Assembly: GCA_964291295.2 (NCBI GenBank)
Contig: OZ219754.1
Location: 2,560,001 to 2,624,000 of the forward strand
DNA length: 64,000 nt
Source: an uncultured Candidatus Binatia bacterium
Lineage (GTDB): Bacteria > Desulfobacterota > Binatia > UBA9968 > JAJDTQ01
Direction of reading: 5' to 3'
Shown here: positions 16,640 through 23,159 of the stretch, piece after piece
Layout: each line of letters opens with the position of its first letter
How positions within the stretch are numbered: position 1 is the stretch's first letter
Translations under genes and position numbers: made by a program
The notes under the pieces: model-generated
The model's database searches: none
The model's input: only the letters and a program-made list of their open reading frames with translations
What the model was told of the DNA's origin: nothing

Positions 16640-19600
16640 CTATTGGAGGGCGAGTATCTCCCGCGCTCGGACGCGATCGAGTTGAGCGTGTGCAAATTGA
16701 TTGCGGTAGCTCCGGAGGCACCCGTAGCAACTGGAGTCGCAGCCGCAATTGCCCTGGACGCGCTCTCTTGCAGCACGAATGACTTTCTCGAAGACCTCCG
16801 GCTGTTCAAGCTGCGCCACCAGCCCGGCACCACCTGGCACATTGTCGTAAAGTACAATCGCCGACTCTCCGGGCTGGTCGCCGCCGGTTATGGTGACGTT
16901 CAGATCGGTATCCGGCACTTCCAGCGTGTCCGCCGCGCCCTGCAGGATCGCGTAAGCGACCGAATACGCCTCCCACTCGCCATCGACCCTCGGAAACTGA
17001 AGGCGTACGACGTCGGTGGCCAGTTCGTGGCCGAGAGAGAATCGCTCCAGGGTTCCGTAGCAGTCCGAGTTCGAGGGCGACTTGTGGCTGGCCTGCGGCT
17101 CCACCATGTGTGCGCCGCAGGAACGGCAGATGTAAAAGCCTTTCCTGTTTCGGCCCTCACACAGGATAATGAGTACTCCGGGAACCGCCCTCGTCACCTG
17201 TATTACGTCCAGCATGGTCCTGCTCTCGGGTTGTGCGTCAGCGTCGAAACCGCGGAAGAAGGGTCGCGTCGTGTACAGGCGCTGCGCGCGCCCACCCGGC
17301 TCGGAGGGTTTCTTGAACGGAGCCACAAAGCCGAACTCGGGAATGAGGTATTTCGGTTCGTCCGATGGTGCGTCGGTGGCGCCCTCGTTCCATTGACTGA
17401 AGTTACGTGCATCGTCATATTGATAATGACGTACGGGCCATGCCTTGCCCGCGACCACCTTGACGCCGCAGGATTCCCATTCGAGCTTGTTGGCAATCAC
17501 CTTGCTACCGGGAGCGTACTCTGCGATCGCTTGCGACAGATCTCGCTGGAGCGAGACGCCGGTCGATTGGCCATCAGTGGGGCGGATATCGAGTTCAACG
17601 ACATCCACCGGAAATCCGTATTTCGGAATGACGGCCTTTCGGGAGAGGAAGTTGAGCGTCCGTTCCTCCGCGATGGTCTTAATGCGCCTGCCAATGCGCT
17701 CGACCATACGATCTTTGCCTTGCTTGAAGTATTCCCGGCGTAGAGTCTCCATCGCAATAAAGTCCGCGCTCACTTCCTGCTCTGCGAGAGCAAGGCGGCT
17801 GTCTTTGCCAGCGATCTTCACAACCCAGGCATCGTCGCCGAGACCGACCCGCTCGTGCATGTTCTCCGGGGCGATGCAGCGTATCGTTTCTTTCAACTGG
17901 TTGTTGCTTTCGCAAAAGCTGAACAGATCGGTTGTCGCCTTAGGCGCGTGCCAGTCGCCGACAAAGGTATCGACCTTCTGGAATCTGCCCCGGTCTCTCT
18001 TGAAGAATTCGGACAAGGCGACGGCAGCCATATGGCGCAGAACGATCTTTTCGTTCGTCATATGCAGGCGCGGAGGATGAATGGCACCGGCTATTATTCG
18101 GTCGACGGGATTTTCGTAGTGATATAGGTCGTGAGGATTGCGGCGGCAATAAGTCAACACTAAGCCAGGCGTTTCTCGCCGGCCGGCGCGCCCGGCGCGC
18201 TGAGCGTAGTTGAATGCTTCCGGAGGGACATTGCGGAGAAATACCAAATCCAGATCGCCAAGGTCTACGCCGACCTCGAACGTGGTGGAGGAACTCAGAA
18301 GGTGGATGCCGCCGTGCTTGAAGCGCTCTTGCCTCCGGCGCGCTTCCTCGGCATCGATCTGCGCTGTATGTTCTTCGGCACGCAGTTCCGGCGGCAGCAA
18401 GGGGCTTTTATAGAGCATTCCATAGTGATTGTCGGCGAGGCGTTGTTGCTGGACTGGTGCGAGGGTACCGGGGCAGCGGTATCTCGGGCAAACGCCTCGA
18501 ACGTTGTGGCTGCTTACGGTTGCACAGGTGTCACATTCCCATAAGTCGACGAAATTGGCAGGCTTGATGCGAAGCCAACAGGAACTGAGCCGGAACGTGC
18601 CGTTTCCCTTTGCAGGCACCAGCAGGGGGTCGCGGTTACGTTCGCGCACTGCTCGCCATACCTCTTTCATCAGTTCTATCGACGCCGACTGTTTGCAGTC
18701 CCCGGACAGGTCGCTGTCCACGAGTAATCGGCGAAGGAAATGCGTCACGATGGCGGATTGCGGGCCACCCCATTGTCGGATACCGCGCCGCCCGCCCGGC
18801 GGCGCAATGCTGAATGCCTCCTGGCGCCGAGGAGAGATATCGTTCCATGCTGGCGTTCCGGCACCTTCGGGCAGATTGATGGCGCGGCTCGGGCGCATTT
18901 CATCCAGCAGGTAGCCGACCAGAACGCGTGCCTCGATTTCGGTGAGGTTCCATGGCGGTCGCCGAACCGCGTCCGGCAAACGCAAGTCCCGGGGCAATGC
19001 GACGAACCATCTGACCAGCCCGACGCCGGCAAGGGACAGCCTCTTCTCCTCGGTCATCGCCTCGCGCAGGATGGGAGTGAGCACTCGGCGGATTCGCTGC
19101 TCCCGAGTGTCCGCTTCACCGAACAGCCCGGCCGCGTCCCACTCCCGGAGCAAACGGTTTCGGAGGTCGTCGATCGACAGTCCTTCCTCGGCTACTGGTT
19201 CGGACATGGCCCTGAGAATGAGATTCCGGTCGCGCAGCTTCCCGTAAGAATCCTCGGCGTACCAAGCGAAGAAAGCGGCCTCCTGTCGGCTGTCGGCGAA
19301 AGTAAGGATCTTGCGTCGACCTTTTGGCAAGCGTTCGTGAAGGGCGGTCGCGATTACGGCATTCGGTCCGTCCGATCCATGCACGATTTCCTGAACGGGG
19401 TCGCGGACCCCGTTGTGCCCGTAGTCGCAGGCTACGCACTGCTTCAGTTGGTCCGAATTCTGTTCGTGTGAATCGCACTTCTTCACGGGTATCGCTGCAC
19501 GGCAGCCGCAGCTAGGCGCCGACCTCGACAGAGTGCCGCAGCGTTTGCACAGCCATTGGTCTCCGTCCTCCGCCGGCAGGTAGTAGTCGACACCGAATCC

Positions 19601-20842: not shown

Positions 20843-23159
20843 CAAGCATGCTCCTGATTAAATCCACGTTGGTCTGATGCGAGGTTCGCCGGCGCCTGTC
20901 AATGGGGATGGAACGTTCCACTGCTTCCGTCAATGTCAAGCCGGCCGCCTCGAACTCGCCGGGGCTGAACCCCTTTCCGATTCGCCATCCACTTACGGGA
21001 GATATGACGTGAGGCCGCGACTGATTGACGGGCCTGGGTGGCGAATTGACGGTAACCGTTACGCTCCTGATGATGTCCTCCAAGCCGGCAACGGATACGG
21101 TGAGCGTGTACCGGGTGGTGCGGGCGGGGCGGACGGTGCAGATGCCGTCGGTTTCGACCGCACCTATATCAGGTTCAAGGGCCACACCGGCGTTGCCCGT
21201 GTTCCGGGTTGCCCATTTCAGGGTCGTTTCCTCACCGTCGAAAAGTGTCGCCGATTCCGACTCGAACAAAACGATCTCAGGCAAAGGATCCGCGACAACG
21301 ACGATGAGCGATACGACTTCCCCGGCCCATTCCACGTTGAAATGGGCTTCGGCATTCAGTCTCTGGTCGATCTGGGCGTGGTCGACGAAGTGATCCAAGG
21401 GGATTGCGATGCGGTCTTCCTGGATCTTTCGGCTGTATGGCAGAACCTGTTGGTCGTCGAACCCTGCGTGAACCGATGAGCACCGTTTCGACAGGATCGA
21501 CAGCGTCATCCCGGCGTAGGCATGGTTCCTGAATTCCTCTCGCGTCATGATGAGCGGCGTGTCGTGCCAGTCGCCAGGATCGGTCTCGCCCTTTTCCAGT
21601 CGCCACCAGATTCGGGGAAGTTCGAGGACAATGCTCACGTCAGGCGCACCGGATCCGAGGCTGCACGATACCCGGTCCGCGCCTGGATGCGCCGGGACGC
21701 TGATGGCACCAGAAGGCAGCGCTGTCTGACAGGCCTCGACCGGGAGGATGGCGGGAAGTATCGAACCGTCCACACCAACAAGTCGTAGCACGGTGATCGG
21801 GTATCCCGTCGGCGGCGGTACGAGCAGCGTGTCTTGAGTGTACTCGACCCCGTTGACCTCGACCCGTCCCAGGTCGCCGACATACCGGAATGCCAGGCTG
21901 TCGAGCATGCTCATTTCCCGATCGTAGACCCGGAGAAAAAAGCGACCCTCCTTGCCGTTCAGAACTGTCGAAAGCGCCTTCTGCTTGGGGCAAAAGTTCT
22001 GTCCCCAGCCGACTTTAGTCTCCTCACCGACCCGTGCCCATGCAATGTCCGGTGAACGTTCGAGAACGGGCGGATGGCCAGCAAATAGCATTCCGTCATC
22101 GGAGTCATCGTAGATGTACTGTCCGGTCAGTTTGATACTGGAGGGTGTCAAGGGACCAGCCCACTCGCAGAAGCCATCGACAAACTCGGCTGCAGTGTCT
22201 GCGTCCCGGTAGAAGTAGTGCGCCCGGAAGTCCGGATCGTCACAGCCGTCAGATTCAACCGGCGCGTTGCCCGTTCGCTGCCACGTTCTCGGCGCGATGA
22301 CGATGAAGTGTCCGCTGGTGATTCCGGACATTCGGCGCCCACTGCCAGCCCAGTTTTTTTGCACCTTGAAAATGAGTGGGACGCCTTCAAACAGCGCAAC
22401 GTCGTGTTCCTTCTTGTCCCGAGAGGAAACTGTCACGCGACCCTTCAGCGACGGGATGCGGCATTGCCCGTCGGCAAAATCCAGAGACTCGTCATTGAGA
22501 CGTACCGCCGCGACCTCACATTCCTTGTCGGCATACAGGATGACCTCCCACCTCGCAGATTCGGGAGCCTTTCGGCAGAGCAGTTCCAGGCGGGAAGGCG
22601 GAGGGCGTCGCGGTTCCGGTTCCGGGTTGCCCGGACGTCCGTTTCGTTTACCACCTATTTCCCGCGGTTCCTTGGCCCCCTCATTGCCCTTGGCAATGCC
22701 GTCCGATTCGTTGCTTTCCTGTTCCACAGGGGGCTTGGGTTGATGGTGTTGGTCATCCTCAGTCGTCTGTGATGTGTCCGTGGACGACTCGTCGGGCTCG
22801 CCTTCTACGGGATTCGTAGAAGGCAGATCTTCGGCTCCGACGATCAGCGGAAGAGGAAGTTTGTGTTTGTGCGGGTCGGGACCGGATGCCGGTTCGACAG
22901 GATCAGCCCCCGGTTCGGGATGTCGAGGTTCATCGTCGAGCGGCCCATCCTCTGGTTGATTACCAGGGGGTTCTTCGGGTTCGTCCGAGGCTTTGGGATG
23001 AGCCTCGTCCCCCTGTGGCCGATCCTGTGTCGAGATCGGCAAGGGTTCGGACGTTGGACGCGAGGTGGTCGGGCTGGCAGGTGATGCGAGAGTCCTTACG
23101 AAAGACCATCGAGATTTCACCCATGCCAACAGGCCCTCGAATAACGATGTCATACCCAT
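20835..23159 (-). CDS. Large hypothetical partner protein: disordered acidic N-terminus, beta-rich core, Ig-like domain and C-terminal ribosomal eL13(L13e)-like domain
   Basis: Open frame whose stop overlaps the helicase ATG by 8 nt. Start taken at MGMTSLF (23159) because the longer ORF runs into IS630. C-terminus [55 protein letters not shown]. Confidence 0.82.

Follow-up and report, generated by a model that had tools for sequence, protein, structure and literature searches.

A compact DruE-like helicase and an immunoglobulin-like partner with an eL13-like tail: a probable two-gene anti-phage module in a Candidatus Binatia genome

Introduction

In the genome of an uncultured Candidatus Binatia bacterium (assembly GCA_964291295.2), a compact DruE-like helicase is encoded together with a single upstream partner protein, and the two genes probably constitute a horizontally acquired anti-phage module of the Druantia lineage, a variant of the 'one partner plus DruE' layout. 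The pair lies on the minus strand of a 64,000-nt stretch of contig OZ219754.1, here called the window, to which all positions given below refer. The partner, a protein of 774 amino acids (aa) built around an array of immunoglobulin (Ig)-like domains and ending in a short tail akin to the ribosomal protein eL13, appears to represent an undescribed family, unrelated to DruH, which takes the place of DruH. It is the partner family alone that is new here. The helicase side is already known, and the two-gene layout is not new either, because a compact nuclease-less DruE with one partner is described by Bell et al. 2025 (10.1101/2025.09.15.676423) and Himpich et al. 2026 (10.64898/2026.05.13.724758). 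An earlier note on this DNA, made from the sequence alone, had proposed a new two-gene system; the novelty of the partner family stands, and that of the compact DruE with one partner, being already in print, does not.

Druantia is one of the commonest and still poorly understood helicase-based defences. The first Druantia structures and mechanisms date from 2026; all of them concern the DruH-DruE pair of type III-A, and the papers disagree on the role of DruH.

A conserved two-gene module

The two genes and their parts are listed here with the evidence for each, all on the minus strand.

16640..20842, minus: helicase gene, DruE-like superfamily 2 (SF2) helicase of the YprA/MrfA family, 1400 aa (translation; Pfam, PADLOC and PDB matches)
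20835..20842, minus: 8-nt overlap of partner stop and helicase start, ATGCCTGA (sequence)
20835..23159, minus: partner gene, 774 aa, family undescribed, preceding the helicase (homologue alignment, synteny, AlphaFold2 (AF2) model)
23100..23159, minus: N-terminal helix, partner residues 1-20, possible membrane-binding element (AF2 helix 4-17, predicted local distance difference test (pLDDT) 60-66)
22599..23099, minus: disordered linker, acidic and Pro-rich, residues 21-187 (pLDDT <50, composition)
21030..22598, minus: beta-sandwich/Ig-like array, residues 188-710, conserved family core (AF2)
20838..21029, minus: eL13-like basic C-terminal tail, residues 711-774, motif starting GKGFS (Pfam, NCBIfam, PDB eL13 chains)

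The open reading frame (ORF) of the helicase spans 16640-20845, with an ATG at 20842, and the partner stop codon occupies 20835-20837, so that the two co-oriented genes overlap by 8 nt, as the earlier note had read them. An AGGAG lies 8 nt 5' of the helicase ATG, and from this motif and the overlap together translational coupling of partner and helicase is likely. The partner ORF in full (20835-23411) would encode 858 aa, a reading which is wrong because the inverted repeats of the adjacent IS630 element show that the extension enters the end of the insertion sequence (IS). In alignments, partner homologues about 787 aa long cover the 774-aa form completely (100%), and the N-termini of the longer homologues mostly start M-R/L-M/V-T; the start used here, M85 of the full ORF at 23159, is judged correct. 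The database gene call for the partner (P0003, 630 aa) begins well within the gene.

Relatives of the partner were sought in species-representative genomes, and the 50 loci recovered, all in metagenome-assembled genomes (MAGs), are named as Alpha- and Gammaproteobacteria, Bryobacterales, Rhodothermales, Latescibacterota, SAR202/Dehalococcoidia, Gemmatimonadota, Binatia, Nitrospinales, Spirochaetes, Verrucomicrobia and others, several of these names being those of typical sponge-symbiont groups. In 48 of the 50 loci the next gene after the partner, in the same orientation, is a DruE-like helicase, so that the check proposed in the earlier note, whether partner homologues precede a DUF1998 helicase, does not refute the pairing; the two exceptions are a 2.3-kb contig that ends in the partner and a locus with a truncated partner. 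Partner and helicase overlap in 38 of the 46 scorable junctions, in 25 cases by exactly 8 nt, and no third gene is conserved, no ORF cluster outside the pair recurring in more than three of the 50 loci. The pair is a real, well-conserved two-gene module.

Identity to the window proteins across the same loci is 43-81% for the helicase and 23-59% for the partner, the partner diverging faster than the helicase, and the same pattern of divergence is reported for DruH relative to DruE by Wu et al. 2026 (10.64898/2026.05.12.724681). Counted as representatives of clusters at 50% identity, the matches of an exhaustive profile search with the partner number 1387 at E<=1e-30; at E<=1e-3 the count rises to 13330, a set which surely includes unrelated Ig-repeat proteins. 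Within the genus, the partner core occurs in one of 24 other genomes (G023), and a tail-like match alone in another. In the G023 copy the partner is 42% identical over residues 158-629, with the eL13 tail unmatched, and is likewise followed by the helicase, here 74% identical, at a different chromosomal site, which implies that this copy would have been independently acquired.

The helicase

The Pfam matches of the helicase, all above the cut-offs, are DEAD (6.7e-17), Helicase_C (6.6e-10) and MZB (6.6e-14, residues 1297-1377), the last being the MrfA zinc-binding domain, formerly DUF1998. A DEAD/DEAH core followed by Helicase_C and a four-cysteine MZB is the composition by which YprA/MrfA-type SF2 helicases are defined. 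The MZB ends at residue 1377 of the 1401-residue translation, leaving 24 residues to the end of the protein, and Pfam matched no nuclease domain after it; the compact, nuclease-less helicase of the earlier note, ending after DUF1998 in an island without a methylase, is borne out. Its motifs include a Walker A sequence GTASGKT (K116), DEAH at 257-260, a further motif at 881-888, several CxxC zinc motifs and the MZB cysteines C1366, C1368, C1372 and C1375. An alignment of 37 helicase orthologues, drawing on the 36 of 48 loci with a helicase that gave a single full-length match free of stops, shows no variation in motifs I, II and VI or in the four cysteines of the MZB, and on this ground the helicase looks active, its catalytic equipment apparently intact.

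In PADLOC the helicase matches DruE1 at 1.3e-151, DruE3 at 7.6e-138, DruE2 at 1e-115 and DruE4 at 6.4e-108, with scores of 350-505 bits (DruE1 505, DruE3 460) as against 77 bits for DpdJ, 60 for DrmA and a BrxH score far below those of the DruE models. Judged by these matches it is clearly DruE-like, that is, a relative of the signature helicase of Druantia, as the earlier note had supposed. No DruE subtype model covers it from end to end (two to six stretches per model), and E. coli DruE reaches 2180 bits on the DruE3 model. The nearest PDB chains are 9tu7_Y (2108 aa, 3.2e-72), a 'DEAD/DEAH box helicase' of the same deposition series as the DruH chain 9tud_A, and 9wae_A, followed by YprA 6znp (5.6e-21, 77 bits); the score against TIGR03817 is 119 bits, the cut-off being 874. 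In a BLASTP comparison with the DruE of an E. coli plasmid the alignment stops at DruE residue 1713 of 2104, and the last approximately 390 residues of that protein, the published phospholipase D (PLD) nuclease region, have no counterpart in the window helicase. No close relative of the helicase was found in a plasmid collection, where the best identity is 32% and none of 125 records covers at least 80% of the query.

The partner

Modelled by AF2 on a 76-sequence alignment, the partner has a mean pLDDT of 78, its folded part lying mostly at 84-98 per 10-residue block with four blocks at 69-78, and comprises a helix (residues 4-17), a disordered stretch (19-187), an all-beta region (190-727) and a helical tail (733-772). 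The linker, the beta and Ig-like domains and the eL13 tail proposed in the earlier note are recovered in the model and the profiles; the amphipathic character it gave to the N-terminal helix is not (p 0.56 for the window protein). The N-terminal helix is significantly amphipathic in 38 of 60 longer homologues, and in four of the 60, all distant (L045 type), it is hydrophobic and transmembrane-like and followed by basic residues; these helices would point to membrane attachment rather than to a docking peptide. The linker (37 D/E versus 18 K/R and 35 Pro in 189 aa) is the least conserved region of the partner, with a median identity of 27%. The idea that the linker, by its acidity, is a conserved means of autoinhibiting the basic tail was considered and rejected, since the linker is net negative in only 47 of 68 homologues.

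The core is evenly conserved, at about 55% identity, and each of its five regions has a median identity to the window protein of 48-59%. Residues 188-455 are the most conserved part of the partner and hold most of its invariant polar residues; refolded alone, they give a pLDDT of 88 and a predicted TM-score (pTM) of 0.83. A hidden enzyme fold was looked for in this region, which yielded no PDB match at E<=1e-3 and no profile match at E<0.5. A Foldseek search with the whole partner against PDB and BFVD gave nothing beyond strings of Ig domains of a generic kind, among them titin, contactin, complement and phage Hoc and tail proteins, with TM-scores of 0.1-0.2, and thus no functional homologue. 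For one domain pair, helicase 1-730 with partner 188-455, complex prediction gave a score of 0.05, the mark being 0.32, a result that speaks neither for nor against a complex. No PADLOC model matches the partner at E<=0.1, and Pfam and NCBIfam match nothing in it apart from the eL13 similarity of the final approximately 55 residues. Because no PADLOC, full-length Pfam or NCBIfam model covers the family, these loci would be missed, or called in part, by the defence finders now in use.

Relation to DruH and to known systems

The DruH-DruE pair of the E. coli plasmid CP057056, whose DruH is the solved chain 9tud_A, served as reference. That DruH matches 10 DruH3 models at E = 0, and among 42 DruH homologues collected, which are named as the STY4851/ECs_5259 family, 41 carry PF27205. 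The profile of the window partner attains an hhalign probability of 0.15% against E. coli DruH and of 0.27% against a 28-sequence DruH profile, and neither the partner nor its core profile matches 9tud_A at E<=10. In the 120 listed partner homologues PF01294 is carried by 61 and no domain at all by 59, PF27205 and PF27201 being absent from all of them. Ten distant members of the family, compared with PADLOC, match no DruH, DruF or DruL model; their only matches are the SNF2 part of one fusion and a marginal PDC-M33A at E 0.019.

These results bear on a reading which we regard as rather improbable, that the pair is an ordinary Druantia of type III-B and the partner a true DruH, too divergent to be recognised by sequence and shorn of the helical domains at its two ends. 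In order and overlap the genes do resemble DruH-DruE of Mycobacterium smegmatis, which have a 17-bp overlap (PMC13316683), both DruH and the partner are organised around Ig-like arrays, and the published III-B DruE is compact and without PLD domains. Against this stand the two negligible hhalign probabilities, the unmatched structure, DruH3 models that find E. coli DruH ten times over and neither the partner nor its 10 distant relatives, and a DruH domain that is nearly universal in one family and missing from the other; moreover, the partner has neither the N-terminal helical (nuclease) domain nor the C-terminal helical domain of DruH and is some 350 aa shorter. The partner would then be better described as a family of its own, and the PADLOC run bears out the earlier note in so far as the partner is neither DruH nor DruF. 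In the literature on Druantia and DruE, defence islands and DUF1998, no description of a partner with an eL13/L13e tail was found, with the limit that the supplementary tables of Bell et al. may list type III-like partners.

With Druantia III-A, represented by the DruH-DruE pairs of E. coli and P. aeruginosa (9tud, 9tu7), the window pair shares a two-gene module in which the partner lies upstream of a YprA/MrfA-family DruE with an MZB, as well as Ig-like domains in the partner and a setting in accessory mobile DNA. The III-A DruE, however, is a protein of about 2100 aa that ends in two PLD nuclease domains, whereas the window helicase has 1400 aa and none, and the III-A DruH, a 1119-aa member of the STY4851/ECs_5259 (YjiT) family with helical N- and C-terminal domains, is unlike the window partner with its linker, possible membrane helix and eL13-like tail, the two being unrelated by sequence and by profile. 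The canonical CP057056 pair (L055:2199-15571) is carried by a conjugative plasmid of type IncY; immediately after it come another DEAD/DEAH helicase and a class I S-adenosylmethionine (SAM)-dependent DNA methyltransferase, an arrangement that resembles the published Druantia III / ARMADA II array.

Bell et al. 2025 describe a 'type III-like' Druantia branch whose helicases most often have no nuclease, name a III-B representative and represent the III-like branch in the YprA tree by GIH50614.1; Himpich et al. 2026 define subtype III-B by DruE and DruH, the DruE being compact and free of PLD domains. These systems, the M. smegmatis DruH-DruE and the window pair have in common a small DruE that in most cases carries no nuclease, a single partner gene upstream of it and an overlap between the two genes. 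The window pair, with its compact DruE devoid of PLD domains and its one partner upstream, has this layout in full; the III-B partner, however, is called DruH (1132 aa in M. smegmatis), and the window partner matches no DruH model or profile. A comparable pattern is found on the C. butyricum plasmid pNPD4_2 (L054:2759-10644), where a 1559-aa nuclease-less DruE-like helicase (DruE1 589 bits, DruE3 562 bits) is overlapped by an upstream 1069-aa gene without PADLOC or Pfam match and unlike the DruH models. That partner is also unlike the window partner (hhalign probability 0.08%), and the two helicases are 26-40% identical.

PADLOC defines Druantia type IV as DruE with DruF and DruL (PMC8565338). 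Neither DruA-D, nor DruM/F/G, nor DruF with DruL, of types I, II and IV respectively, was found beside the helicase: the partner has no PADLOC match, the island holds no further gene of this kind, and no third gene is conserved across the 50 loci. The locus is not a DISARM: helicase and MZB are in one chain, DrmA matches the Helicase_C stretch alone (4.6e-17) and the island has no methylase. The MrfA/YprA repair helicase (6znp) shares the SF2 core, the four-cysteine MZB and the lack of a nuclease in the chain, but is half the size, is without the inter-RecA insertion and the extra zinc modules, gives the 77-bit match noted above and belongs to a repair context, not to a mobile module of two genes.

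The eL13-like tail and alternative C-termini

The eL13 stretch which the tail matches contacts ribosomal RNA (rRNA), and eL13 is not known from bacteria. The tail matches Pfam PF01294 at 3.7e-5 (24.1 bits, cut-off 24.9, model positions 40-99 of 180) and NCBIfam PRK12277 at 2.7e-12 (46.1 bits, cut-off 96, positions 27-75 of 83). A profile built from 26 tails matches the eL13 chain 9e6q_AH at 4.8e-15, and the best 60 of its 70 matches contain 57 further eL13 chains at 1e-9 to 4e-6. The final approximately 55 residues of the partner align to the eL13 core, residues 15-68 of 9e6q_AH and about 64-120 of eukaryotic eL13, and by these profile matches the tail is considered homologous to the conserved eL13 core. 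Compared with eL13 of archaea and eukaryotes, it is only a core fragment, fused to a 700-aa non-ribosomal bacterial protein. The top match of the tail profile is nominally IcmE/DotG, but the two chains of this kind were set aside as an artefact of a short repeat, with no significant stretches.

The eL13-like tail is present in 216 of 264 fetched members of the family and is net positive in 68 of 70 homologues. About 18 of the 264 have in its place a module of about 75 aa ending '…YFAVRTSNAI…ARVLQV…' and without Pfam match (L017, L018, L005, L028, P0035, P0057 and P0060 among them); one partner (L050) has a C2H2-like tail, and partners of the L030 type have basic 'STKRK' tails. In a Longimicrobiales MAG (L037:5681-10951, plus strand) a single protein of 1756 aa joins the core of the partner to a DpdE/ZorD-like SNF2 helicase (PADLOC DpdE 3.9e-171), and the fusion gene overlaps the DruE-like helicase by 4 nt. 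Such a modular C-terminus is what one would expect if the partner is an adaptor whose binding or effector end can be exchanged. A 512-aa acidic-repeat protein of a genome of the same genus (G008; L053:148-1686, plus strand) ends in an eL13-like tail (GKGFSRGELREAGL, RLDKRRRNTHPVN) and has no Ig-like core, from which it follows that the tail is an independent module in the genus.

Genomic context

The surroundings of the pair comprise the following features.

16293..24474, no strand: lower-GC insert of about 8.2 kb between two convergent OCD genes (GC profile, same-genus comparison)
15099-16292, plus: OCD_Mu_crystall gene, left flank (Pfam)
24475-25746, minus: OCD_Mu_crystall gene, right flank (Pfam)
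23294..24426, plus: IS630-family element, part of the island and not of the system (DDE_3 transposase, inverted repeats)

As the earlier note had claimed, the pair occupies an A/T-rich stretch, with a GC content of 0.57-0.62 over about 16.5-24.5 kb against 0.65-0.71 in the flanks, and has an IS630 element for a neighbour. The transposase of this element (23468-24409, Pfam DDE_3 5.5e-31) is bounded by inverted repeats of 34 nt each (23294-23327 and 24393-24426, 94% complementary), and the element ends 135 nt upstream of the partner start. The native partner promoter may have been displaced or replaced by the IS630 insertion. A scan of the island for promoters and terminators gave nothing better than shuffled sequence. 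Helicase, partner and IS630 are the sole content of the island, and no methylase gene is present among its ORFs. The nuclease remnant that the earlier note had placed at the boundary was not recovered: no nuclease Pfam match was found in the 10 flanking ORFs scanned, and no convincing ORF in 16293-16640.

The two convergent OCD genes are 32% identical, and because their identity is so low they are considered old paralogues and not a duplication; on the same ground they were ruled out as a duplicated target or as the arms of a composite transposon. Orthologues of both are present in 27 other genomes of the genus, where their spacing on one contig ranges from 123 bp (G021) to about 6 kb (G012), as compared with 8184 bp here. 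Since the spacing is variable in the genus, the pair and the IS are an insertion in a variable hotspot, and the locus appears horizontally acquired, accessory and mobile. The gap between the OCD genes is about 1.1-3 kb in several genomes of the genus.

Possible mechanism and alternative explanations

The module could be pictured as follows. The partner would act as a sensor or adaptor, with the N-terminal helix perhaps anchoring it to the inner face of the membrane, the eL13-like tail binding exposed nucleic acid and the Ig-like array recognising a phage component. It would then recruit or license the helicase, which, by analogy with characterised DruE, would load on single-stranded DNA and travel in the 3'-to-5' direction through the replication intermediates of the phage, unwinding them. 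As no nuclease can be recognised in either protein, the outcome would arise from unwinding or displacement itself or from host nucleases. Nuclease-free action is plausible by analogy, because the PLD domains were dispensable in the III-A experiments of Himpich et al. 2026, as those authors state.

Several observations weigh against a defence module of this kind. Defence is deduced from homology and context, the flanking genes here are metabolic and do not make up a defence island, and a nuclease or other killing activity is recognisable in neither protein. The eL13 match is a motif of 50-55 residues below the curated cut-offs for the whole family; the N-terminal helix of the window partner has a hydrophobic moment of 0.31, which does not differ from shuffled sequence; the acidity of the linker extends to just the 47 of 68 homologues mentioned above; and fold matches of the Ig-like array as generic as those found carry no ligand information. 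In three of the 50 loci (L026, L031 and L041) in-frame stops interrupt the conserved core of the partner, and these three were for this reason left out of one of the alignments. In L026 the helicase is also fragmented, and the three could be decaying copies or assembly errors.

Beside the diverged DruH discussed above, two further explanations call for comparison with the anti-phage module. One, which we consider very improbable, is a housekeeping or DNA-repair helicase of the MrfA/YprA/SftH type with an accessory factor and no part in immunity. Such a role would accord with the MZB and the lack of a nuclease, with the match to YprA 6znp, with the metabolic neighbours and with the ability of M. 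smegmatis SftH to replace DruE (PMC13316683); yet the DruE models outscore both TIGR03817, which stays far below its cut-off, and YprA, few of the relatives searched carry the pair, which here stands next to an IS within a low-GC insert whose site is variable, and its spread across phyla at high identity is unlike that of a core repair gene. The other, slightly less improbable, is an RNA- or ribosome-directed system, in which the tail would dock on rRNA, ribosomes or phage RNA and the helicase would act on RNA or on transcription-translation complexes. The homology of the tail to the conserved core of a ribosomal protein speaks for it, as does the acidic-repeat protein of the same genus in which the tail occurs as an independent module. 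Characterised DruE and MrfA, however, are reported to act on DNA, the eL13 site is absent from bacterial ribosomes, a short basic helix-loop motif could bind any polyanion, and lineages with other tail modules retain the same helicase.

An anti-phage module of the Druantia lineage is on these grounds the reading which we prefer. A stronger form of it, which we hold to be unlikely, would make the pair a separate and widespread Druantia type, in which an adaptor with a captured eL13 core, leashed to the membrane by its long linker, passes nucleic acid of the incoming or replicating phage to a nuclease-free helicase; this nucleic acid might include RNA or transcripts bound to ribosomes.

Significance

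An eL13-derived tail in bacteria would be an unusual reuse of a ribosomal-protein module outside the ribosome. Should the pair indeed prove to be a separate Druantia type, the eL13-like, 'YFAVRTS', zinc-finger-like and SNF2 ends would be alternative targeting modules of one scaffold. Whatever the nature of these ends, the locus presents a helicase lineage with what appears to be a wholly different partner and no nuclease, and as such would constitute a natural experiment on what the helicase itself contributes to Druantia and on what is required of its partner.

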